Shown here piece after piece: positions 4,094-16,674 of a stretch of DNA of 64,000 nt. Numbering within the stretch: position 1 is the stretch's first letter; the number at the start of each line of letters is the position of its first letter. The notes below the pieces were generated by a model. The model made no database searches, was not told the DNA's origin, and worked only from the letters and a program-made list of their open reading frames with translations. Both the position numbers and the translations under genes were made by a program. The stretch is from Alphaproteobacteria bacterium (lineage in GTDB: Bacteria > Pseudomonadota > Alphaproteobacteria > JANSWW01). The stretch is taken from positions 151,162-215,161 of the forward strand of contig JANSWW010000007.1 of NCBI GenBank assembly GCA_024743275.1, given 5' to 3'.

Positions 4094-4552
4094 ATGACAG
4101 AGACGACAAAGAAAACCTACCGCAAGGACCAGGCCGCTATCGACAAGCTCGACCGGATGCAGTTCGCCGTCACCCAGAACGACGCCACCGAGCGGCCGTT
4201 CAGCGGCAAATACTGGGATCACAAGGAAGAGGGGCTCTATGTCGACATCGTCAGCGGCGAACCCCTGTTCACCTCACTGGACAAGTTCGATAGCCATTGC
4301 GGTTGGCCCAGTTTCACCAAGCCGGTGCAAACCGGCCATATCGTGGAGAAGCGCGACGTTTCCCATGGTATGATTCGGACCGAGGTGCGCTCGACCCATG
4401 GCGACAGCCATCTGGGCCATGTCTTCGACGACGGCCCGGCCCCGACGGGCCTGCGGTACTGCATCAATTCCGCCTCCCTCCGCTTTATCCCGAAGGATAA
4501 GCTGGAGGAGGAAGGGTATGGAGACTATTGGCACCTGTTCGCGACGCCCTGA
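4094..4552 (+). CDS. msrB: Peptide-methionine (R)-S-oxide reductase MsrB
   Basis: CGWPSF and [10 protein letters not shown] motifs; 152 aa, the typical MsrB length. Confidence 0.9.
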
Positions 4553-5250
4553 GGGCCAGCCCGAGCCTGAACCACCTCACCGATCTGGTCCTGTATCGCG
4601 ACGGGCTCGTCCTCGTTCTCAACAAGCCCGCCGGCATCCCGGTCCATGCGGGTCGTGCCGGCGGCCCCAATCTGGAAGATGGCTTTCCCAGCCTGACCTA
4701 CGGCATTCGCCATGTCCCGGCCCTGGCCCATCGGCTCGACCGGGACACAAGCGGCTGCCTGGCCCTCGGCCGGCATCCCAAGGCGCTCAAGAAGCTCGGT
4801 AAGCTGTTCCGCGAGGGGCGGGCCGAAAAGACCTATTGGGCCCTGGTCCGGGGCGTGCCGGTGCGCGAGAGCGGCGTCATCGACGCGCCCCTGCTCAAGG
4901 TCAACCGACGGACCGGCTGGACCGTGAAGGTCGATCCCGCGGGCAAGGCCGCCCGGACCCGTTGGACGCTGAAGGGCAGCCGTGACGGCATCAGCTTTAT
5001 CGAATGCCATCCGGAAACCGGCCGGACCCATCAGATCCGGGTTCATCTCGCCCATCTCGGACTGCCGATCCTGGGCGACGTCGCCTATGGCGGGAATGCA
5101 TCCGACGGGCCCCTGGCGCTGCACGCCCGGCGGCTGGTCCTCCCGCTTGCCGCCTCCAAGCCGACGGTCGACGTCACGGCCCCGCCGCCGGAGGCTTTTG
5201 CAATTAGAGCAACCACGGTTCTCTCAGGCATAGTATTGCGAGAGTTTTAG
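4528..5250 (+). CDS. RluA-family RNA pseudouridine synthase (no S4 domain); TTG start; the 3' end runs into the low-GC insertion
   Basis: [14 protein letters not shown] catalytic-Asp motif plus [12 protein letters not shown]. The last ~15 codons are AT-rich, unlike the rest of the gene. Confidence 0.75.
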
Positions 5251-7133
5251 GTTTTAAATAAGTCTTCTATATCATCATCAATACTAGAATTATCGCGTAT
5301 TTCTTTTTGGCACCAGTGTCTGACTGAATTCATTTCCTTATGGAAATTGTCGTTTATATCTTTGAACGCGCCCTCACAGTCAACCAGAATTCTCTCGATC
5401 TCGTTGTATAACTCTTCGTCAGATTCCGATAGTTCTTGTATATCTTCGCATCGAATCTTGCAGGCGCTATCCGAAAAACTGATTGTGATAGTTAACGGTT
5501 CATCGGACTGACCACGTTCCTGGTAATGATGGACGCTTTTGGCCGTTTGCTTGAGAAATTCGTGGAATATTTTTCCACTGTATGCTTGATATTGTTTCTT
5601 TCCAGAAATTCGAGATGCTATATGCAGAAGTGAGAATAGTTCATCATCAAATGAAAAAGACGTTATGCCTGTGTCTTTTCCAAATTCTTCAAAACAAATT
5701 GTAAATTGTAACTTGCTAAGTGCGTAATAAGGTTTTTCTGGGTTGCGTGATCTGCTGATAGGTTTGAGGTGCTTCTCGAATTGAGGTTCAACAAATTTTT
5801 TTACGAAAAGGGGGGGATTCATGGAGTAGCAGAATTTTGGAAAATCATCGAAATAGCGGTTTTTGAGCCTCTCCATGAATTTATCAATATGTTGGTTCTG
5901 ATAATAAATAAGTCCATATGCTGCAAAATACTCTTGAAAAGATCGGTGTAAAAATGTAAAATATTTTCCATCGCGCTGTATTAAATTGACGGACTCTGAA
6001 AAATCTCTAAGCGTTTTTTGTGGATCAACGTCTATTTTTGCAATTTTATTAGACTTCTGAATTGTTTCTAGAATATCTACCTCGGTAAATTCAATTCTCT
6101 GTTCCATATATGAAACTAGTGAAAAAACCGAGAAAGCATTCCTAAAAACATGAAAATCGAGTTCATTCACCTTCGTAAATTTTTCTTTCGTGCTGTTGTG
6201 CCAATTATAAAGCGCGATAAACGCATGATCATAAAAAATGTTTAGGCTATCAGATATAGTGCCAGTATCGCTAAATGTTAGGAGCATCATCATTGTGAGA
6301 AGTGGAGTTGACATAAGGCTTTTTTTACTCGAAAAGTCCTTTTTCATTATTTCTTTGAGAAATTCTCTTTTTGTTTTTTCGTGAAATGGTAGCTTTTCGA
6401 TTAAACTAATATTTTGATCTAAATTAAGTTTGCAACACTCGAATCCATTAAAGCCCGACCAAGAGTTGAATCTTTGATTCAGCCTACTTGATACGATGAA
6501 TCGACATTTTTGGAATTCACTTGAAATTTCAATAATTTCGTTTTCAACTCTGTGCTTCTTGTCTTCAACAATCTCGTCAAATCCATCTAGAATAAAAGTG
6601 AATTTTCCTATTCCCATTAGATGGCGAAATGTATCCTCATCTAGTTTACCGCTCTCAGATATTGTGGTGCGTGCTAGTGTAACCAACCCTGATCCTAGTG
6701 TATTTTCTGTTGAGAGATTATTGAGCATCCTCAGTTCAAGGAATATGGGAATTGTGTTTGTTTCTTCTAAAATTACATTCCATAAAAACCTCATGAATAT
6801 CGTTTTTCCTGCCCCACCATTTCCTTGTATTATGACGTTTTTGTTTTTTAGAATCTCATTTATAATTTCAGAGTCTGGGAGAATTGTGTCATTATTTTTG
6901 AAATTCAGGGGTATGTATATTTCATTAAGGCCTACATCGGAGTCTTTCTTTAAAAGTATTTTGATTTTGGTCGTCTTATTCTTGGTTCTTGCAACATAAG
7001 GCTTGAAGTCTTCAAATGCGGCAGTCCATTTTTTTCTAATTGTGGGCTGTAAATGAAGTGTAATTCGATTCCAGAGCTCCTTTACGGTTTCTATGGTTAA
7101 CTCAGCTGTATATTTTTCTGCGGAGAAGCTCAT
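5247..7133 (-). CDS. NACHT-clade STAND NTPase (bacterial NLR-like protein); candidate antiphage defence protein
   Basis: Walker A IIQGNGGAGKT and Walker B FTFILDGFDEI (the hhhhDGhDE NACHT signature), sensor-1 RFIVSSR, and STPLLTMMML (GxP-like NACHT motif). The ~95-aa N-terminal region and ~330-aa C-terminal region have no recognisable domain. An AAGGA Shine-Dalgarno sequence lies 11 nt upstream of the ATG. Confidence 0.8.
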   Translation of the reverse strand: MSFSAEKYTAELTIETVKELWNRITLHLQPTIRKKWTAAFEDFKPYVARTKNKTTKIKILLKKDSDVGLNEIYIPLNFKNNDTILPDSEIINEILKNKNVIIQGNGGAGKTIFMRFLWNVILEETNTIPIFLELRMLNNLSTENTLGSGLVTLARTTISESGKLDEDTFRHLMGIGKFTFILDGFDEIVEDKKHRVENEIIEISSEFQKCRFIVSSRLNQRFNSWSGFNGFECCKLNLDQNISLIEKLPFHEKTKREFLKEIMKKDFSSKKSLMSTPLLTMMMLLTFSDTGTISDSLNIFYDHAFIALYNWHNSTKEKFTKVNELDFHVFRNAFSVFSLVSYMEQRIEFTEVDILETIQKSNKIAKIDVDPQKTLRDFSESVNLIQRDGKYFTFLHRSFQEYFAAYGLIYYQNQHIDKFMERLKNRYFDDFPKFCYSMNPPLFVKKFVEPQFEKHLKPISRSRNPEKPYYALSKLQFTICFEEFGKDTGITSFSFDDELFSLLHIASRISGKKQYQAYSGKIFHEFLKQTAKSVHHYQERGQSDEPLTITISFSDSACKIRCEDIQELSESDEELYNEIERILVDCEGAFKDINDNFHKEMNSVRHWCQKEIRDNSSIDDDIEDLFKT

Positions 7134-7446
7134 TGGGCTGCGATCCTTAGAGTATGAATTCTAAATTTTTTATCAATACGAGCAAATATGACCAGAGATA
7201 CTTCAAGATGCAAGAAATATGTTGGTTTATAGAAAGCCTTGATAGAGAATCTTTCGGTTTGAGGTTGCTGCGGTGAGCATGCTTCCGTCACGTTGTTTTG
7301 CAGACTATCGTGTGGTGTGTCAGTGCGTACTGCAGGGGGTTTCTTGGCTAAAATGGCTATGCCGTAAACGACGTTTGACAGAGTTCATGTAAAGTAAAAT
7401 TTATGTAATAAGTTTTATTGAAGCCCTATTAAGAATTTTATTATTT

Positions 7447-7474
7447 GACAAGCGGTCGCATGCGTCAGCTTGTC
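7447..7474. promoter_or_regulatory. 28-bp imperfect palindrome (gacaagc-ggtcgcatgcgtca-gcttgtc), an operator-like site in the AT-rich leader upstream of the NACHT gene
   Basis: Outer 7-bp arms are perfect reverse complements and the core cgcatgcg is itself palindromic. A TTGACA hexamer overlaps the 5' arm. Confidence 0.4.
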
Positions 7475-7552
7475 CTCATCCATATCGGTTAACGTTCCGT
7501 AAAGCTTGATGGGTGAAGGGGAAAACATCTTGCTAAGACAAGGAGACGACCT

Positions 7553-7648
7553 ATGGCCGATCTTGCTTTCCCGCTTCTTAATATGCTGATCATTGGTTTC
7601 GGTATCGCGTTCTGTGCGAAAGAACTCTACGCGCTGAACAAGCAGTAG
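7553..7648 (+). CDS. 31-aa hydrophobic micro-protein (MADLAFPLLNMLIIGFGIAFCAKELYALNKQ), predicted single transmembrane helix
   Basis: A strong AAGGAG Shine-Dalgarno sequence lies 8 nt upstream of the ATG. Intermediate GC (~47%). Sits at the right edge of the islet, divergent from the NACHT gene. Confidence 0.35.
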   Translation: MADLAFPLLNMLIIGFGIAFCAKELYALNKQ

Positions 7649-7659
7649 GCGGACCATTT

Positions 7660-7743
7660 TCTGCGGGCCGAGGCCGTCGATCCCGCTCGGGGCGCGCTCG
7701 GGGCGCGCTCGGGGCGGGTGTCGAGACGGAACCGGCCCGCAGA
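7660..7743. repeat. Perfect 11-bp inverted repeat (tctgcgggccg / cggcccgcaga) enclosing three tandem 11-bp units (gctcggggcgc, 7685-7717)
   Basis: Read directly from the sequence; the arms extend to ~15 nt if one T indel is allowed. Confidence 0.6.
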
Positions 7744-7850
7744 AATGCTCCAATTATCCCGCGACCCGTCGTTTAGCCCAAAACCCGCCCCCGACTTCGG
7801 CGTATCAATAGCCATCACCGCAATCCCAAATCCTCCCAGGAGATGCGACG

Positions 7851-9068
7851 ATGGCGACCGCCCTGCTCCCCGACAGCGCCGACCTCCATAACGTCAACGA
7901 GCCGGCCGAGCTTCCGGATTTCGACGCCTTTCCGATCCGGCATCGGCTGACCGCCGCCAGGGCTTGTGGTCAGGCGGTCGATCTGGTCTGGGACGACGGG
8001 GCCGAGACCCGATATCACGTCATGACCCTGAAGGAGAACGCGCCGGACATCGTCCATCCGGTAACCCGGGAGCAGGCGACGATGCTGACCGACATCCCGG
8101 CGGACCTCGCGGCGGCGGAGGTTGGCGTCGACGGTGTCGGCGGGCTGTGGGTGCGCTGGTCGACCGGCGGGATCAGCCGGTTCCATCCGGGTTGGCTCCG
8201 CGCCTACGCCCCGGGTGCGCCGGAGGATGTCTTCGCCCTGCCACCGAGGGTGACCTGGGACGCCGCGACGATGGCCGACCTGCCGCGCTTCGACGGCCCG
8301 GCGGCGATCGCCGACGAGACGGTGCGGACCGCCTGGATGGAAGCGCTCTACGTCTACGGCGCCGCCATTCTGGAGGGACTGCCCACGGACGAGGAGGTGA
8401 TCCACCGGGTCCCGAGCCTGATAGGCCCGCTGCGGGAGACCAATTTTGGCAAGACCTTCACGGTCGAATCGAAGCAGGACGCCACATCCAACGCCTATAC
8501 GACCATGGCCCTGCCGGTGCATACGGACCTGTGCACCCGCGAGTACGAGCCCGGCCTGCAATTCCTCCACTGCATCCGCAACGACGCGGACGGCGGCGAA
8601 AACATCCTGGCCGACGGGTTTCGGCTCGCCGAGCGGATCAAGGCCGACGCGCCCGAGGAATACGACGCGCTGACCACCGTGCCGATCACCTTCTACAACA
8701 AGGCGACGGACACGGATTTCCGCTGCACCGTGCCGATGTTCGATCTCGATAAGGACGGCGACCTCAGCGATGTCCGCTGGAGCCCCTGGCTCCGGGCGCC
8801 GGTCCGGGCCTCCTTCGAGGAGACGGACCGGCTCTATCGCGGTCTGCGCCGGGCCTTCGCCCTGGCCGAGGACCCGGCCTTCACGGTGACGACGAAGCTC
8901 AAGGCCGGCGACCTTCTCTGCTTCGATAACCGGCGGGCCCTGCATGGGCGTGTCGGCTACGATCCGACCACCGGCGGCCGCAAGCTCATGGGCTGCTATG
9001 TGGAGCGGGAGGATCTGGTCTCGGCCCTGCGCATCATGCTGCGCCGACGCCGCGCCGCGGAGGTCTGA
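7851..9068 (+). CDS. Fe(II)/2-oxoglutarate dioxygenase of the gamma-butyrobetaine hydroxylase/TauD family with an N-terminal DUF971-like region
   Basis: HTD...(facial triad), CFDNRRALHGR, and ~405 aa, the typical BBOX-like length. AGGAG lies just upstream of the ATG. Confidence 0.8.
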   Translation: MATALLPDSADLHNVNEPAELPDFDAFPIRHRLTAARACGQAVDLVWDDGAETRYHVMTLKENAPDIVHPVTREQATMLTDIPADLAAAEVGVDGVGGLWVRWSTGGISRFHPGWLRAYAPGAPEDVFALPPRVTWDAATMADLPRFDGPAAIADETVRTAWMEALYVYGAAILEGLPTDEEVIHRVPSLIGPLRETNFGKTFTVESKQDATSNAYTTMALPVHTDLCTREYEPGLQFLHCIRNDADGGENILADGFRLAERIKADAPEEYDALTTVPITFYNKATDTDFRCTVPMFDLDKDGDLSDVRWSPWLRAPVRASFEETDRLYRGLRRAFALAEDPAFTVTTKLKAGDLLCFDNRRALHGRVGYDPTTGGRKLMGCYVEREDLVSALRIMLRRRRAAEV

Positions 9069-9116
9069 GCCGTGGCCGCCATTCCCCGGACCGTTCCCCG
9101 GACCGTTCCAGAAACC

Positions 9117-10229
9117 ATGGCTGGTGTCCATCTGACCGGCCAGGGCGGGCTCGATAAGCTGGTCTACCGGGAGGACATCCCGACGCCCAAGCCCGGCCCG
9201 GGCGAGGTCCTGGTCCAGGTGGCGGCCGCCGGGGTCAACAACACCGACATCAACACCCGGATCGGCTGGTACAGCCCGGACGTCAAATCCGGCACCACGG
9301 CGGAGGGCGGTTCCGAGGGCCTGGGCGACTCCGAAAAGGATACCGGCAGCTGGACCGGCCGCCTGGTCTTCCCGCGTATCCAGGGGGCCGATTGCGTCGG
9401 CCGGATCGCCGCCGTCGGCCCCGGGGTCGATCCGGCTCGGATCGGCGAGCGGACGGTGTGCGAGCCCTATATCGTCGATCCCGACGACGAGACCGGCCTG
9501 GAGAGCGCCGGTTTTCTCGGCAGCGAATATGACGGTGCCTTCGCCCAATTCATGGTCCTGCCGGCCCGCAACGCCCACCGGGTGAGCGACGATCTCGACA
9601 TCCCGGACCCGGCCCTGGCGACCTTGCCCTGCTCGGGCGGGACCGCCATGAACATGCTGGTGATGGCCGGCGCCAAGGCCGGCGATCTCGCCCTGGTCAC
9701 CGGGGCGTCCGGTGGGGTCGGGACCTTCCTGGTTCAGATCCTCAAGCATATTGGCGCCGAGGTGGTGGCGGTCGCCAGTCCCTCCAAGTTCGACGCCGTG
9801 AAGGCGGTCGGCGCCGATCATCTGGTCGACCGTACGACCCCGGATCTGGAGGCGGCGGTCCTGGAGGCGACCGGCGGGCGCCGGGTCAGCCTGGTCGCGG
9901 ATGTGGTCGGCGGCGCCCAGTTCCCGGCGATGCTGGCGCTGCTCCGTCAGGGTGGGCGCTATGTGACGGCGGGGGCGATCGCCGGGCCGGAGGTCACCCT
10001 CGACCTGCGCACCCTCTATCTCAAGAGCCTGTCCTTCTTCGGCTCCACGGTCTACCGCCGGGAGACCTTTCCGAAGCTCATGCGGTTTCTGGAGGAGGGC
10101 GGCATCAAGCCCGTGGTCGACAGCACCGCTCCGCTCGCCGAGATCCGCGACGCCCAAACGCGCTTTCTCGCCAAGACCCATGTCGGAAGTCTGGTGCTGA
10201 TCCCGCCGCCGGTCGGCGCGGCGGACTAG
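9117..10229 (+). CDS. Zinc-binding (medium-chain) dehydrogenase/quinone oxidoreductase family protein
   Basis: GPGEVLVQVAAAGVNNTD and the Rossmann motif GASGGVGTFLVQI. The ATG at 9117 is preferred over the GTG at 9072. A 12-bp tandem duplication (ccccggaccgtt x2) lies just upstream. Confidence 0.8.
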   Translation: MAGVHLTGQGGLDKLVYREDIPTPKPGPGEVLVQVAAAGVNNTDINTRIGWYSPDVKSGTTAEGGSEGLGDSEKDTGSWTGRLVFPRIQGADCVGRIAAVGPGVDPARIGERTVCEPYIVDPDDETGLESAGFLGSEYDGAFAQFMVLPARNAHRVSDDLDIPDPALATLPCSGGTAMNMLVMAGAKAGDLALVTGASGGVGTFLVQILKHIGAEVVAVASPSKFDAVKAVGADHLVDRTTPDLEAAVLEATGGRRVSLVADVVGGAQFPAMLALLRQGGRYVTAGAIAGPEVTLDLRTLYLKSLSFFGSTVYRRETFPKLMRFLEEGGIKPVVDSTAPLAEIRDAQTRFLAKTHVGSLVLIPPPVGAAD

Positions 10230-10846
10230 TCGGCGTCGACCGCCCGCATCATCGCTGCGACGGCCAGATCGCCCGGCCGGCCCCGCTGTTCGAGCGCGGC
10301 GGCCGCCCCGGCGCGGTCCGCGGGGGTCTTGTTCTGGGAGAGCTTCCACTTGCCCTGAAGGTCGGTGATCATGATCTCGAACCCGATCAGCGCCTTTCTA
10401 AGGCCGGTGAACAGCTTGTCGCCGAGCTTGTCGTTGGTCCACGGCTTCTTCGGTAGCAGGCGCTCCTCCTCCTGGGCCGACACGTCGTCCAGAAGGGTCA
10501 CGGTCTCGGCGTCGGTCATCCGCCGGGCCGTGCCGTAGGCGTGCACCACCGCATAGTTCCAGGTTGGGACCTGGCCGTGGCTTTCATACCAGTCGGGCGA
10601 GATATAGGCGTGGGCGCCCTCGAACACGAACAGCACCTCCCCCGCTTCCTCCAGAACATGGGCCGCCGGGTTCGCATGGGCCAGATGACAGCGGATGGTT
10701 CGTGTGTCGCGGTCGATCAGCACCGGCAGATGGGTCGCGTCCGGGCGGCCCTCGATCGTCGTCACGAGCACCGCGAACGGGTCGGACTGCATCAGATCGA
10801 ACAGAATATTCTCATCGGTCTCGGTGAACTGGCGTGGGACATACAT
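10226..10846 (-). CDS. FMN-binding negative transcriptional regulator, PaiB family
   Basis: MYVPRQF... N-terminus, PaiB-like overall pattern, ~205 aa. Confidence 0.7.
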   Translation of the reverse strand: MYVPRQFTETDENILFDLMQSDPFAVLVTTIEGRPDATHLPVLIDRDTRTIRCHLAHANPAAHVLEEAGEVLFVFEGAHAYISPDWYESHGQVPTWNYAVVHAYGTARRMTDAETVTLLDDVSAQEEERLLPKKPWTNDKLGDKLFTGLRKALIGFEIMITDLQGKWKLSQNKTPADRAGAAAALEQRGRPGDLAVAAMMRAVDAD

Positions 10847-10952
10847 TGCGAACGACCATCTCAAAAAGCGGTGAAAGAGAAAAATGGGGTGATGCGTTTT
10901 GCCGGATCGCCCCTATCTTCATCGAAGAAGGCAGGTGAGGAAAAGGCTGAGT

Positions 10953-11663
10953 ATGACGGACAGCATCCCGTTTTTCGGCGGTCAGGCGAAGAAGGACCCC
11001 CTCGACCGCGATCCCTTCTCCGGCCGGCTCAAGGAAAAGCTGATCGGCGCCAAGGAGTCCTGGGCGCGGGACGGCCGTCTGCTGACCGGTGACGCGCCGT
11101 CCACCGGCCGCCGCCGATTACCGCCGGGCCAACGCTTGGTCACGGATTGGCCGGAGCTCGATCTCGGCGTGCAGCCCAACTTGCTGCCCAAGGATTGGTC
11201 CCTGGAGGTTTCCGGCCTGATCGACCGGCCGTTCAAATGGACCTACACCCAGCTCAAGAAGCAGCCCCAGGCCGAGGTCGTCTCCGACATCCACTGTGTC
11301 ACCGCCTGGTCGCGCTACGACAACCGCTGGCAGGGGGTGAGCGCCAGACATCTGATGAGCGTCGCCAAGCCCCGCCCGGAGGCCAGGTTCCTCATTCTCA
11401 AAAGCTACGACGGCTATTCGACCGGCTTGCCGCTCGCCCATTTCGGCGACGAGGACGTGCTCTTGGCGACCCATTGGGAGGGGCGGCCCCTGACCCGCGG
11501 GCACGGCGGCCCGGTGCGGCTTGTTGTCCCGAAACTCTATTTTTGGAAGTCCGCCAAGTGGATTCGGTCGATCCGGTTCACCGATCGCGACGTTAAAGGC
11601 TTCTGGGAGGCGCGTGGCTATCACGATCTCGGGGATCCCTGGAAGGAGCAACGTTATGGCTAA
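10953..11663 (+). CDS. Sulfite oxidase-like molybdopterin-binding oxidoreductase (YedY/MsrP-like)
   Basis: Conserved CVTAWS Moco-binding Cys motif and GYHDLGDPWKEQRY C-terminus. Confidence 0.75.
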   Translation: MTDSIPFFGGQAKKDPLDRDPFSGRLKEKLIGAKESWARDGRLLTGDAPSTGRRRLPPGQRLVTDWPELDLGVQPNLLPKDWSLEVSGLIDRPFKWTYTQLKKQPQAEVVSDIHCVTAWSRYDNRWQGVSARHLMSVAKPRPEARFLILKSYDGYSTGLPLAHFGDEDVLLATHWEGRPLTRGHGGPVRLVVPKLYFWKSAKWIRSIRFTDRDVKGFWEARGYHDLGDPWKEQRYG

Positions 11664-12219
11664 ATTGAAGAAGGTGGCGGGCATGCTGGCCGCCGCCACC
11701 CTGATGTCGATGAGCCCGCAACCGGCGACCGCCGCCGGGAAGGCCTTCGACTTCGAATTCACCGCCATCGACGGCGACCCGATGCCGCTGTCCGAGTTCA
11801 AGGGAAAGGCGGTTCTGGTGGTCAATACCGCCTCGCTGTGCGGCTTCACCGGGCAGTATGCCGGGCTGCAGGAGCTTTACCAAAGCCGGGCCGACAAGGG
11901 CCTGGTGGTGATCGGTGTGCCGTCCAACAACTTCGGCAATCAGGAGCCGGGCACGGAAGAGGAGATCGCGGAATTCTGCGAGGCCCGATACCAGGTCACC
12001 TTCCCGATGACGGAGAAGGTCGATGTGGTCGGCGACAACGCCCATCCTTTCTACCGCTGGATCTCCGCCGAACTGGGCGAGCGACGGGCGCCGCGCTGGA
12101 ACTTCTACAAATATCTGATCTCGCCGGAGGGCGCCGTTGTCGGCTCCTGGCCGTCGACCACGAAACCGACCGCCAAGACCATCACGGCCGAGGTCGATAA
12201 GCTTCTGGCCGGACAATGA
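11656..12219 (+). CDS. Glutathione peroxidase with signal peptide
   Basis: NTASLCGFT active-site motif (Cys replaces Sec), FPMTEK, WNFYKYLI. Confidence 0.85.
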   Translation: MAKLKKVAGMLAAATLMSMSPQPATAAGKAFDFEFTAIDGDPMPLSEFKGKAVLVVNTASLCGFTGQYAGLQELYQSRADKGLVVIGVPSNNFGNQEPGTEEEIAEFCEARYQVTFPMTEKVDVVGDNAHPFYRWISAELGERRAPRWNFYKYLISPEGAVVGSWPSTTKPTAKTITAEVDKLLAGQ

Positions 12220-12692
12220 TTGGAGTTGGGAAAGGCGTGGGCGTCGTCGCGCTGCTGGCCATGCTGGGTGCGCCGTCCACCGCCTGGGCCTTCCCCCAGA
12301 ACGAGGACGCCTTGGGTCCGTTCACCGCGATCGAGGCCCTTTTGAAGCAGGAGGAATACGGTCAGGCGCTCGACGTGCTTGGCCAGATGGAAACCTCCCA
12401 TGGGGAGGAGGCGGACTACTGGGTCCTGCGCGCCTATTCCCAGCGCAAGGCCGGCGACATCGAGAGCAGCCGGGCGAGCTATCTGAGGGCGCTTGAGATC
12501 GATCCCGCCCATATCCGCGGCCGCAATTACTTCGGCTATCTCCACCTCACCGTCGGCGATATCGCCGGCGCCGAGGCACAGCTCGCTTTTCTCGAAGCGC
12601 TCTGCCCCTCCGGCTGCGCGGAACGCGACGATCTCGCCAAGGCGATCGAGGACTACAAATTCGGCGACCCCTATGACGGGCTGAAGTACTAG
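12216..12692 (+). CDS. Secreted hypothetical protein with TPR-like helical repeats
   Basis: N-terminal signal peptide ending AWA; Ala/Leu-rich helical repeats; start overlaps the gpx stop codon. Confidence 0.5.
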   Translation: MIGVGKGVGVVALLAMLGAPSTAWAFPQNEDALGPFTAIEALLKQEEYGQALDVLGQMETSHGEEADYWVLRAYSQRKAGDIESSRASYLRALEIDPAHIRGRNYFGYLHLTVGDIAGAEAQLAFLEALCPSGCAERDDLAKAIEDYKFGDPYDGLKY

Positions 12693-13036
12693 CGTCCGGA
12701 CCCTAAGCCCTGGACCCATAATCGCTTGGCCGAGGGCGGTACTTCCCTCGCGTCGGCAACGGCAAGGATCTCGGCGATCGGTCCTCCACGGGGGCGATCG
12801 AGAGCCTCGTTTCCCCGTCCTTGATGGATGTCGCGTGCTCGTCAGCCCGGGCGATTGTGCCGTGTTTGCTTCGCCTCCCGACCCAGACATCGCCCCGTCC
12901 GATACAATCGGCTTGAGATGAGCCTATGCTAGCAATCTTCTGTTGAGCTGGATGAGTGGTATGCTCGCGATCCGAAGCTTGACACCACGCCCCTGCTCTG
13001 TTCGGCAGGCTCTTAAAGTTAATCTATAGGGGCTTT

Positions 13037-13672
13037 TTGATGTTTGATCAGTATTTGGCGGGGATTCTCGTTGCTTTCGGCGTCTTTATCATGGGGATGT
13101 TAAGCCCTGGCCCGAACATCATGTCGATCATCGGAACGTCCATGGCCGTGGGTCGTTCACAGGGCAAGGCCTTGGCCCTGGGGATCGCGAGCGGGTCGTT
13201 CATCTGGGGCACCCTTACGCTTTTCGGTCTGACCGCATTGTTGGCGGCTTATGCCGGCCTGTTGACGATCATCAAAATCGCGGGGGCGAGTTACCTGCTT
13301 TTTCTCGCTTTCAAGGCATTTTCGTCCTCGTTGAAGGGCAAATCGATGGAAGCGCAGAGCGTCAAAGTCGAAGGCGGAACCGCACGTTACTATCGTCGTG
13401 GCCTCTTGATCCAAATGACAAATCCGAAGGCTGCGTTCACTTGGCTGGCAATCTTGTCCATCGCGCTCGATCCGACAGCGCCTTTCTGGGTTGGAGGCGT
13501 TGTCGTGGCCGGAACGGGAGCCATCTCGATTTTCGGCCATTTGGCATATGCGATCGCGTTTTCGACCGCGCCCATGGTTCGTGGTTACCGCAAAGCACAG
13601 CGATTGATCGACGGAATGCTCGGGTCGTTCTTCACGTTTGCCAGCTACAAGATCGCGACCTCAAATCCATAA
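13037..13672 (+). CDS. LysE/RhtB-family amino-acid exporter
   Basis: LSPGPN motif near the N-terminus; ~210 aa with six hydrophobic segments. Confidence 0.8.
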   Translation: MMFDQYLAGILVAFGVFIMGMLSPGPNIMSIIGTSMAVGRSQGKALALGIASGSFIWGTLTLFGLTALLAAYAGLLTIIKIAGASYLLFLAFKAFSSSLKGKSMEAQSVKVEGGTARYYRRGLLIQMTNPKAAFTWLAILSIALDPTAPFWVGGVVVAGTGAISIFGHLAYAIAFSTAPMVRGYRKAQRLIDGMLGSFFTFASYKIATSNP

Positions 13673-13800
13673 TAGGCAGCGTGACCCTGGGCTCGGCGTG
13701 AAGACCGGCGAGAACACGTCAAGCCCGTTGCCGGTACTTCGGCGATATTGTCGGGCCGAGAGTCGAAGTCCGGCCTCGCCGCTAAACCAGACGTCACCAT

Positions 13801-15501
13801 TTACGAGTGCGCGACCGATGGGCCGGTCGCCGGGACGGTTTTCCCGTCGGGAATGGCGACGATCCCCAGCGGCTCAACCCGTCCGCGCACCTCCGTTTCG
13901 TGCGTCGCGAACCCGCCGAGATCGATGCCGGCCCAGTTGCCGGCGGTTTCGGAGACGATCAGTTGAACCTGATAGTCCTTGGTCAGACTCTCGAGCCGGC
14001 TGGCGATGTTGACCGTGTCCCCGATCGCCGTCATGCCGGTGGCATCCCCATAGCCCATTTCCCCGACGATGCAGGGGCCTGCGTGAACGCCGATACCGAT
14101 CCGGATCGGTTCCGGCAGATCGTCGGCCAGCGACGCGTTCAGCCGCTCCAGATTCTCCGCCATGCGCCTGGCCGCGTCGATCGCCTGCCGGCTGCCGGTC
14201 GCCGGACCCTCCTCGATGCCGAATAGGGCCATCACCCCGTCGCCGATGAATTTGTCGAGCTTCCCGCCTGCCTGGCTCACCGCCGCTCCCATCTCGGCGA
14301 AATAGCGGTTCAGCAGGTACACCGTGTCATAGGGGAGTTTCGCTTCGGCAAGTTTCGTAAAGCTGCGGATATCGGCGAACAGGACCGCGATCTCCCTTTC
14401 CTCTCCTGCGGTGCTGGTCCGCTGAATGCCGGGGGCGCCGCGGACGGAGGGCGGGATCAGGGGCGTGATCTGCAGGTCGGTCTCGGGACGGAGCTGACAG
14501 GCGAGCCTGACCCGGGGCGGGGCGGAGACCCGCCGCAGCACCTTCCGTTCCGCCTCGCTCGCCGCCGGCAGCGTGTCGGCGCCCCTGTCGACCCGGATCC
14601 GGCAGGTCGAGCAGCGGCCCCGGCCGCCGCACACGCTGGCATGGGGAATGCCGCCGATCCGGCTCGCCTCCAGAACCGTGGTGCCCTTGGCGATCTGAAC
14701 CTTCTGGCCTTGCGGATAGGTGATCCGTATCCGGCCGGCCCGCCGGTCGAGACTGTGGAGGGTGATCCGCGCCAACACCAGGAACACCAGCAGGAGGGCG
14801 TAGGCCGCCCAGATCCGGTCCCGCGCGTCGGAAATCTTCTCCGCCATGCCCGGGAGGGTGGCCTTGGACGAGGTGAGCGCTTCGCTCAGCCATGCCCGGT
14901 CCTGCGCCATCTGCTGGACGAACAGACCGGCGTCGACCCAGCCGATCATGGCCACGGTCGGCACGATCACCGCCGGGGTGAAGAGATAGGGCCGCCAGCG
15001 CCGGTATCCCGGCTTGGACGACAGCCAGAAGTCGATGCCGATGCAGCCGTGAACCCAGGCCGCCAGCACCGCCGCCGCCTGAACGAAGCCGGTATAGGGC
15101 ACGAAAACCCAGTGGGCGAGCAGCACGAAGCGGTAGTGGGGCTCGAGCGCGAAGAACTCCTGGGCGAGGCGGGTCGCGGTGACATGCTCGATCAACAGGA
15201 AGGGCAGAACGGCCCCCAGCGCCAACTGGGCGACCTCCTGACGGGTCATCGACTTGAGCCTTTCGCGCAGCAGAAAGGCCCTGGCGGCGATCAGAAGATG
15301 GACGGCAAGCGCCCCGTATAGGGCGATGGTGCCCGGCCGCGACTGCCACACCGCCATGAAGATCTCCCGCCCCGCTTCCAGGGCGCCGATCGAGATGATC
15401 CCGATCATATGGTTCACGAAATGGCTGGTCACATAGACGAAGAGCGTGAGCCCGCTCCACAGCCGCGCCCGGTCCACCCAGGCGGTCGCGGCCTCCGCCA
15501 A
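13801..15501 (-). CDS. Membrane-anchored class III adenylate/guanylate cyclase with an internal 2Fe-2S ferredoxin-type domain
   Basis: About six N-terminal TM helices, then CGGRGRCSTCR...C (plant-type ferredoxin Cys pattern), then the CYCc motifs VLFADIRSFT and KFIGDGVMALFG. Confidence 0.8.
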   Translation of the reverse strand: MAEAATAWVDRARLWSGLTLFVYVTSHFVNHMIGIISIGALEAGREIFMAVWQSRPGTIALYGALAVHLLIAARAFLLRERLKSMTRQEVAQLALGAVLPFLLIEHVTATRLAQEFFALEPHYRFVLLAHWVFVPYTGFVQAAAVLAAWVHGCIGIDFWLSSKPGYRRWRPYLFTPAVIVPTVAMIGWVDAGLFVQQMAQDRAWLSEALTSSKATLPGMAEKISDARDRIWAAYALLLVFLVLARITLHSLDRRAGRIRITYPQGQKVQIAKGTTVLEASRIGGIPHASVCGGRGRCSTCRIRVDRGADTLPAASEAERKVLRRVSAPPRVRLACQLRPETDLQITPLIPPSVRGAPGIQRTSTAGEEREIAVLFADIRSFTKLAEAKLPYDTVYLLNRYFAEMGAAVSQAGGKLDKFIGDGVMALFGIEEGPATGSRQAIDAARRMAENLERLNASLADDLPEPIRIGIGVHAGPCIVGEMGYGDATGMTAIGDTVNIASRLESLTKDYQVQLIVSETAGNWAGIDLGGFATHETEVRGRVEPLGIVAIPDGKTVPATGPSVAHS

Positions 15502-15507
15502 CGCCGG

Positions 15508-16674
15508 TCAGTTCCCGTCGAGCGCGAGCCGGTTCTGGCCGGCCCCGTCGCCGCTATCGGGTTTCGGCACCAGCTCCGGCTCTTCCGTCTCGCCCAACTG
15601 GACCTCCTCGATCCGTTGGGCCCGTTTGGTGACCTTCTCGGTCGAAATGCGGATCTGCCGGATGTCCTCGTCCGCCTGGCCGAAATGGCGTTGCAGTTTC
15701 CCGACCCGATCGTCGAGCCGGTCGACATCCTTTAGAAGGGTCAGGACCTCCTTCTGGATCACGCCGGCCTGTTCGCGCATCCGCGCATCCTTCAGCACCG
15801 CGCGCACGGTGTTGAGCGTCGCCATCAGGGTCGTCGGGCTGACGATCCAGACCTTTTCGGCGAAGGACTTCTCCACCGTATCGGCGAAGCCCGCGTGGAG
15901 TTCGGCGTAGATCGCCTCCGACGGGATGAACATCAGCGCCGATTCCGCCGTCTCGCCCGGAATGATGTAACGCTCCTTGATGTCCTTCACATGGCGCAGG
16001 ACGTCGGTGCGGAAGGCCCGCTCCGCATGGACCCGGTCGGTCTCGTCCTTCGCGGCGTGGAGCCGGCGGTAGCTTTCCAGGGGGAATTTCGAATCGACCG
16101 CGATGGCGCCCGGCGGGTTCGGCAGGGTGAGAAGGCAGTCCGCCATCCGGCCGTTCCCGAGTTTCGCCTGAAACTGATAGGCGTTGGGCGGCAGGATCGA
16201 CTGGACGAGGTTCTCGAGCTGGACCTCCCCGAAAGCCCCACGGGCCTGTTTGTTGTTGAGGATGTCCTGCAGGCCGACGACCTGGGTCGACAATTCGGTG
16301 ATGTTCTTCTGCGCCGAATCGATCACCGCCAGACGCTCTTTCAGCGCGTTGAGGTTCTTGCCGGTGTTCTCCGCCTGCTGGCCGAGGCTGTCGCCGACCC
16401 GTTTCGACATGTCGGCGAGCCGCTGCTCGATCGCCTGGGTCAGCGCCCTTTCCTGGGCGCGCAGGTTTTCCGCCATTTGCTGCTGGGCGGCGGACTGGCT
16501 CTCCGCCACCTGGGCGAGGCGGCCGTTCAGGGCGGACTGGTTCTGGGAGAGCTGGGCGACGACGTTCGAGATCGCCTGGGTATCGCCGCGGGCGCGGCTC
16601 ATCATGAGGGCGGCGGTGCCGAGGCTGATGGCCAGGACAGCCCCGACGATGATCAGAATGAGGGTGGGATCCAT
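15508..16674 (-). CDS. rmuC: DNA recombination protein RmuC
   Basis: N-terminal TM segment, long coiled-coil region and the conserved C-terminal FIPSEAIYAE motif; start set at MDPTLIL. Confidence 0.8.
   Translation of the reverse strand: MDPTLILIIVGAVLAISLGTAALMMSRARGDTQAISNVVAQLSQNQSALNGRLAQVAESQSAAQQQMAENLRAQERALTQAIEQRLADMSKRVGDSLGQQAENTGKNLNALKERLAVIDSAQKNITELSTQVVGLQDILNNKQARGAFGEVQLENLVQSILPPNAYQFQAKLGNGRMADCLLTLPNPPGAIAVDSKFPLESYRRLHAAKDETDRVHAERAFRTDVLRHVKDIKERYIIPGETAESALMFIPSEAIYAELHAGFADTVEKSFAEKVWIVSPTTLMATLNTVRAVLKDARMREQAGVIQKEVLTLLKDVDRLDDRVGKLQRHFGQADEDIRQIRISTEKVTKRAQRIEEVQLGETEEPELVPKPDSGDGAGQNRLALDGN

Follow-up and report, generated by a model that had tools for sequence, protein, structure and literature searches.

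The question raised by this locus is whether a 31-codon open reading frame standing close to a NACHT gene is a gene at all and, if so, whether it belongs with the NACHT gene or with the chromosome around it. Throughout, the window denotes the whole 64-kb stretch of alphaproteobacterial DNA that was analysed. The preliminary description, made from the letters of the window, had drawn attention to a hydrophobic micro-ORF preceded by a Shine–Dalgarno (SD) sequence. It placed the ORF at the edge of the islet that holds the NACHT gene, proposed a toxin-like effector or an accessory subunit, and left open whether the ORF was islet cargo or native. We are confident that the ORF is a real, native and selected gene for a small membrane protein and that it is unrelated to the islet. 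What that protein does is a matter of graded likelihoods, which are taken up below.

The Small Open Reading Frame

An SD-preceded hydrophobic ORF of 31 codons is borne out at this position both by the sequence and by its conservation in relatives. The main features of the locus are collected in Table 1. The AAGGAG upstream of the ATG is perfect, as had been described, but the distance to the ATG is 7 nt and not 8. Combinations of AAGGAG and ATG with a spacer of 5–9 nt occur four times on the two strands of the 64-kb window, where 1.7 are expected. The GC content of the ORF is 0.48, in agreement with the intermediate value of ~47% first given. Its GC3 is 0.62, compared to 0.34 for the NACHT gene and 0.80–0.88 for host genes, and the copies of the ORF in different genomes range from 0.62 to 0.74, still below the host genes. 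The lower-than-host GC3 and the AT-rich leader may reflect an old acquisition of foreign DNA at a hotspot, or weak expression. The ORF is single copy, with no paralogue within the 64-kb window.

The expectation that so short a gene would be missed by annotation held good. Since the exact peptide is among the Logan/ENA gene calls and not in the NCBI source, the deposited annotation lacks the small gene. The TauD and NACHT proteins of the same MAG do occur in the NCBI source. Elsewhere in the window, the minus strand at 391–2577 encodes a 728-aa protein with long C-terminal repeats of the form YLxANPDL...HYxxFGxxEGR.

Table 1. Features of the small gene and its surroundings, in coordinates of the window.
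Feature	Coordinates	Strand	Remarks
NACHT gene, 628 aa	5247..7133	-	Pfam PF05729, E=3e-7
AT-rich native upstream region	7386..7450	+	probable promoter region; contains TATTAT (7439-7444) and TTGACA (7445-7450)
Block CGCATGCGTCA with 8-bp palindrome CGCATGCG	7457..7467	+	invariant in all lineages; candidate operator or promoter element
Purine-rich block GGGTGAAGGGGAA, presumed 5' leader	7511..7523	+	nearly invariant in the window, L002, L003, L085, L086 and L004
Shine–Dalgarno AAGGAG	7540..7545	+	7-nt spacer ACGACCT before the ATG
Small protein gene, 31 codons + TAG	7553..7648	+	ATG...TAG read from the sequence; product MADLAFPLLNMLIIGFGIAFCAKELYALNKQ
GC-rich 3' hairpin, 101 nt	7651..7751	+	starts 3 nt after the stop; -75.8 kcal/mol, z = -5.7

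Relatives and Gene Order

An exact-sequence look-up of the peptide returned three contigs. L001 is the same strain and is 100% identical to the window over 4397–15648. L002 and L003 come from relatives that are ~93% identical to the window. A variant, MAGLAF...LNKE, which clusters with the window peptide at 90%, is found on L085 and L086 directly after rluA, with no islet between. L004, also free of the islet, carries a homologue (P0001, MADLAFPLLNMIIIGAGIAFCAKELIDLNR) in the order MFS transporter, msrB, rluA, small ORF, convergent AraC-family gene, aldolase gene, TauD and ADH. The small gene is therefore met just downstream of msrB–rluA, at a distance from rluA of 164–175 nt in the islet-free relatives (164 nt in L004). 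The conserved neighbours, msrB–rluA upstream and TauD or AraC downstream, are all soluble enzymes or regulators. Several genes around the ORF in the window are of an oxidative-stress type: msrB itself (4094..4552) and, within 10899–12219, a sulfite-oxidase/MsrP-like molybdopterin protein and a glutathione peroxidase.

The locus is disturbed on two further contigs. On L092, a 28-codon remnant (DLAFPLLNMFIIGADILYCVKELYDLKK) lies at the equivalent place, ahead of the convergent AraC gene. It is homologous only from codon 3 onwards, other sequence standing in place of the ATG, the SD and the 5' region. L092 is a long-read assembly riddled with frameshifts, and the absence of the start codon may be real or may be an artefact of assembly or rearrangement. 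Between rluA and the remnant there is a different insert of ~3.1 kb (L092 2400–5515), part of it at 70% GC and part at 32–44% GC, whose right end truncates the start codon and leader of the small ORF. The called genes of this insert have no Pfam hits on record. L088, with an RluA 79% identical to that of the window, keeps MFS–msrB–rluA, and the DNA downstream of rluA is unrelated. No copy of the small ORF was found in 12.7 kb of L088, with ~6 kb to either side of rluA. Right after rluA, at 6001–6900, this contig has a 61-aa ORF and a MiaB-like radical SAM gene. L093, a TauD contig from the same sample as L088, breaks off at the very point where the small ORF is expected.

Since that stretch of L088 is without a copy and the L092 homologue is without its ATG, SD and 5' region, the small gene is dispensable or movable, and by this comparison of contigs it is not universally retained. 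From the different insert in L092 and the broken synteny of L088 at the same point, the junction between the rluA 3' end and the small ORF looks like a recurrent point of rearrangement or insertion.

Evidence for Translation and Selection

The coding signature was assessed in the four intact lineages and in the 28-codon L092 remnant. Between the window and L004, synonymous differences number 12.5 on 20 sites and non-synonymous differences 11.5 on 70 sites, giving by the Nei–Gojobori method a dS of 1.3, a dN of 0.19 and a dN/dS of 0.14 (Fisher p 3e-4). Comparing the window and L002 to L085, dN/dS is 0.03–0.05 (p 1e-4 to 2e-3). The remnant on L092 has a dN/dS of 0.09–0.13. We considered that it might be a decaying pseudogene, but without any elevation of that ratio, decay is unsupported.

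The effect on the peptide can be judged against the neighbouring genes. The nucleotide identity of the small ORF between the window and L004 is only 73%, and the peptide identity is 83%; MsrB, RluA, TauD and ADH are 74–82% identical in the same genome pair. There are no gap columns in the ORF, and in every pairwise comparison it has fewer mismatches than its flanks (p 0.017 to 2e-5), which hold indels of 1, 13 and 22 nt. Of the other reading frames, +1 and reverse 2 are interrupted by stops in every lineage translated, and +2 and reverse 1 in one lineage or more. Reverse frame 0 stays open across the three lineages translated, yet it accumulates radical changes. The SD is invariant in the four intact lineages (TAAGGAGG in L004), while nearby bases of the UTR and the spacing vary. 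Seventeen positions of the peptide are invariant in four of four sequences (L4, A5, F6, P7, L8, L9, N10, M11, I13, I14, G15, I18, C21, K23, E24, L25 and L28), or, written as a pattern, LAFPLLNM-IIG--I--C-KEL--L.

From the conserved SD and the dN/dS values, we infer that the small ORF is a genuine translated gene under purifying selection. Because that selection is seen in other lineages, the ORF is more than a chance one, and chance can be set aside as an explanation. Among the observations that the preliminary description had named as counting against the gene were no conservation in related loci and disruption of the ORF in close relatives. The ORF turned out to be conserved, and it is intact in four lineages.

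Distribution of the Family

The peptide matches no family in Pfam, NCBIfam, PADLOC or PHROGs, and searches of the PDB by sequence and by profile gave nothing meaningful. In a HMMER search of 1.84 billion representative proteins, the one true homologue was P0001 (E=5e-8). A second match, P0002, is an 824-aa eukaryote-like repetitive protein and was rejected as an artefact. Among the GTDB species genomes, a degenerate P7..C21 pattern of the peptide found nothing, and a search with six exact 8-residue peptide patterns showed no close relative of TauD. Two degenerate peptide patterns found no match in viral contigs. A metagenome scan of 80 more distant RluA loci (RluA identity at or below 62%) yielded neither the peptide nor a positional analogue of it, and nothing was found in the literature on the peptide strings. 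The nearest named relatives of the RluA of the window are 59–64% identical to it.

The small-gene family was thus encountered in five lineages of one uncultured alphaproteobacterial clade and only there. Judged by these searches, the small gene represents a new family of 30–31-residue proteins, predicted to be single-pass proteins of the inner membrane and confined to a narrow clade of uncultured Alphaproteobacteria.

A Predicted Membrane Helix and Its Possible Partner

The single transmembrane (TM) helix of the preliminary description is recovered by two methods. The Kyte–Doolittle profile (19-residue) peaks at 2.16 over residues 4–22, and AlphaFold2, given a three-sequence alignment, returns one continuous helix over residues 5–30 with a pLDDT of 91. 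The product is a single hydrophobic helix with a short polar C-terminal tail. The variable positions 12, 16, 19, 20, 22, 26, 27 and 30 share one face of the helix, although with four sequences their clustering is marginal (mean resultant 0.44, p about 0.06). The opposite, conserved face carries P7, N10, I14, I18, C21, L25 and L28, along with G15/G17.

According to the positive-inside rule, the positive segments of a membrane protein face the cytoplasm. The helix (~residues 4–22) would then span the inner membrane with the N-terminus, MAD, net negative, on the outside, and the tail, KELYALNK(Q), net positive, in the cytoplasm. Because there is a buried Asn together with small residues on the conserved face, this face would be expected to pack against another TM helix, either that of a larger membrane protein or that of its own copy. 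The packing would modulate or stabilise the partner.

Proteins of this size and shape are familiar from E. coli, where MgtS has 31 aa, AcrZ 49 aa, KdpF 29 aa and CydX 37 aa. The cydX and kdpF genes sit in the operons of their partners; mgtS and acrZ are stand-alone genes, and linkage to the partner is not obligatory for the class. The small gene is like these four in its ~30 residues, its one hydrophobic helix with a short polar tail, its strong SD, its having been missed by annotation, its purifying selection and the conservation of one helix face. It is unlike them in having no sequence similarity to them, no membrane-complex operon and a distribution limited to a single clade. Single-TM helices that bind and modulate a larger membrane protein are numerous among the small proteins of bacteria, and most of the small membrane proteins characterised so far work in this way; the class of small membrane regulators and subunits has been reviewed (PMC12648545). 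The small gene has the general marks of that class, being a conserved protein of no more than ~50 aa with a single TM helix, but genetic linkage to a partner membrane complex is not among its properties, since its neighbours are msrB–rluA and TauD or AraC. Against partner binding, then, synteny names no partner, and an operon for a membrane complex is absent from the neighbourhood. We put forward the partner-binding mechanism tentatively, at slightly under an even chance. The whole statement, that this is a native, selected small membrane protein gene whose product acts by binding a partner, we regard as evenly balanced.

Could the Peptide Be a Toxin?

The same helix could serve a different end. 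The peptide might perturb the membrane, either as a type I toxin controlled by an RNA antitoxin or as a stress-induced protein of the YohP kind, self-associating and lowering the membrane potential or metabolism. We think this unlikely, although several properties would fit. These include its size, its one hydrophobic helix, the polar or charged C-terminal tail, and the Asn and small residues within the helix. The peptide is also an orphan of narrow distribution, with GC3 below that of the host, at a recombination-prone site, and the conserved 5' blocks are possible targets of a regulatory RNA. With TisB, Hok, Ldr, Fst, ZorO and AapA1, it has in common a hydrophobic helix with a polar end, orphan status and a position beside mobile DNA. 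Its length, its Kyte–Doolittle peak and its predicted single helix place it within the range of type I toxins, which are small hydrophobic membrane peptides under ~60 aa. What defines type I systems is an antitoxin made of RNA together with a toxin mRNA that is structured and processed, and outside a small number of bacterial families such systems are under-explored (PMC12648545). For small membrane proteins of the YohP type, silencing has also been described (PMC12719787). The small peptide resembles the YohP type in having 27–31 residues, nearly all in one TM helix, and a stand-alone gene, and differs from it in showing no sequence similarity.

Other properties point away from a toxin. Unlike TisB, Hok, Ldr, Fst, ZorO and AapA1, the small gene has no family match, no detected antitoxin RNA and no fold occluding the ribosome binding site (RBS) above chance. 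At E<=1, no toxin family of Pfam was matched, nor any family of NCBIfam, PADLOC or PHROGs. Unlike type I toxins, it is single copy in the window, and its synteny is stable and vertically conserved under strong purifying selection over dS>1. RNAalifold does pair the invariant 5' blocks with codons 5–15 in a structure enclosing the RBS, reminiscent of type I toxin mRNAs, but shuffled ORFs pair equally well, and the helices between 5'UTR and ORF are no better than those of dinucleotide shuffles. In terms of duplex energy, the fraction of dinucleotide shuffles at least as good was 0.15–0.94. On this provisional test, an mRNA fold that blocks the RBS is not supported. No promoter-like site for an antisense RNA was seen on the minus strand within or downstream of the ORF. 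The only hit on that strand (7468..7440) is directed away from the ORF and has a spacing 2 nt different in L004. Because conservation of the 3' region does not extend to L004, a conserved antisense RNA overlapping the 3' end is also unlikely.

The hok-like or type I toxin-like idea of the preliminary description accordingly has no positive evidence from family, pairing, copy number or synteny, and it stands neither supported nor refuted. A more specific proposal would make the peptide the toxin of a membrane-toxin module, type I or orphan, that has so far gone unrecognised in Alphaproteobacteria, with CGCATGCGTCA and GGGTGAAGGGGAA as the targets of a trans-acting antitoxin RNA or of a stress regulator; the module would sit at the rluA 3'-end hotspot and perhaps stabilise it. 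This we consider less probable still.

Flanking Elements and Alternative Explanations

To return to a native gene for a small membrane protein, it would constitute its own expression unit, made up of the AT-rich upstream region, the two invariant blocks, the strong SD, the ORF and the 3' hairpin. Since the AT-rich stretch is present in the islet-free relatives (L002, L003, L085 and L086, and partly in L004), it is native DNA. A consensus scan found no complete sigma-70 promoter on the plus strand, and by eye there was no convincing match to ECF/EcfG, sigma-32 or sigma-54 consensus promoters. The CGCATGCGTCA motif is not enriched elsewhere in the 64-kb window. The purine block is unique in the window and has been kept even though dS among the lineages exceeds 1. 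The two blocks are 43–44 nt apart in the window and L004, with varying sequence between them, and the distance from the purine block to the SD varies by a 13-nt insertion in L004.

The hairpin beyond the stop codon has a 12-bp outer stem, in which TTCTGCGGGCCG (7659–7670) pairs with CGGCCCGCAGAA (7733–7744), and an interior with three tandem copies of the 11-mer GCTCGGGGCGC (7685–7716). L002, L003 and L085 keep the outer stem, while the interior varies among lineages in copy number and sequence, L085 being shorter by 22 nt. In L004, the same position is occupied by an unrelated hairpin that is also stable. Every lineage has a stable hairpin behind the stop codon. The structure in the window has no U-tract, is not a canonical intrinsic terminator and does not recur elsewhere in the 64 kb. 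It is probably a 3'-end or terminator structure. Rfam gave no match in the window at gathering thresholds, nor in 7100–7900 at E<=10.

The invariant non-coding blocks show that there is some constraint at the nucleotide level at this locus, and it might be supposed that the conservation as a whole is that of an element acting as RNA or DNA, the ORF being untranslated and incidental. The pattern of change makes this very improbable. Substitutions are concentrated in the third positions of codons, and dN/dS is 0.03–0.14; the frame, the length, the position of the stop and the SD are all kept; and there is neither an Rfam hit nor any significant structure involving the ORF.

A further alternative is even harder to credit, that of a leader peptide or uORF which, with the hairpin as attenuator, controls the downstream TauD (gamma-butyrobetaine-dioxygenase-like) gene. 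In the window and L002, the ORF does lie 200 nt upstream of TauD in the same orientation, with the strong hairpin in between. However, a leader should hold a fixed position upstream of the gene it regulates, and in L004 and L092 the gene directly downstream of the ORF is the convergent AraC gene, with the aldolase gene also coming before TauD; because of this, the ORF is not a TauD leader. Furthermore, it is the amino-acid sequence itself that is selected, beyond the act of translation, and the hairpin has no evident alternative anti-terminator, no U-tract and no Rfam match.

The NACHT Islet

The NACHT gene is divergent from the small ORF, as first described, and its start is ~420 nt away. It lies within a stretch of 33–40% GC in a genome of roughly 65% GC. 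The bounds of the islet come from alignment to L002, which matches the window at 4652–5195 and 7363–7897 and has 24 bp in place of ~2.2 kb. They fall at about 5196/5200 and 7345/7362. The islet contains the NACHT gene only, with no integrase. It is inserted into the last codons of the gene for an RluA-family pseudouridine synthase, between rluA and the small gene, and is present only in the strain of the window. There is an imperfect repeat at the junctions, GGAGGCTTT at ~5190–5198 and GGGGGTTTC at ~7336–7344, and the segment at ~7341–7370 reads like a displaced native 3' end of rluA.

The small ORF had been placed at the edge of this islet, but it begins ~190–210 nt to the right of the junction, outside the islet. 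The proposed tie to the NACHT gene also gave way, the ORF being in the same position in the islet-free L002, L085, L086 and L004. Because islet-free relatives carry the same ORF at the same place, the question of cargo or native is settled as native with respect to this islet.

Homologues of the NACHT protein are only 32–39% identical and are mostly from Rhizobiales. No relative was found in viral contigs, and PADLOC has a model for neither the NACHT protein nor the small peptide. The NACHT protein matches phrog_18297 (E=5e-71). One homologue, on L094 (1–2300, 5877–7085), is 32% identical and sits amid genes with LmuB_C, MC3, CTD7 and SLFN/AlbA_2 domains. These defence-type neighbours support a defence role for this NACHT family. 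The co-occurrence of the peptide with NACHT homologues, which the preliminary description had suggested looking for, was not found on L094, L095 or L096, where three such homologues sit in unrelated contexts.

That the small peptide serves the NACHT defence islet as an accessory subunit or effector, or is part of its cargo, can be given next to no credence. Only proximity and divergent orientation speak for it. Against it, the ORF and its upstream region are unchanged in four islet-free lineages, the islet junction lies 190–210 nt upstream of the ORF, within 1 kb of the three homologous genes there is no such peptide and no other small hydrophobic ORF with an SD, PADLOC and PHROGs leave the peptide unmatched, and its GC3 is far from that of the NACHT gene. 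As a matter of genetic linkage, judged from these alignments, the association is refuted.

Implications

The comparison removes the defence-accessory reading of the NACHT islet. The islet is left as a single-gene insertion at the site formed by the rluA 3' end and the small gene, where another lineage holds a different insert. The locus is a clean example of how islet-free relatives can separate a native small gene from islet cargo. The biological pay-off would be modest as long as neither a partner nor a toxic activity comes to light. What the small gene adds is an unannotated family of small membrane proteins, with defined conserved residues, in a lineage that has no cultured close relatives.
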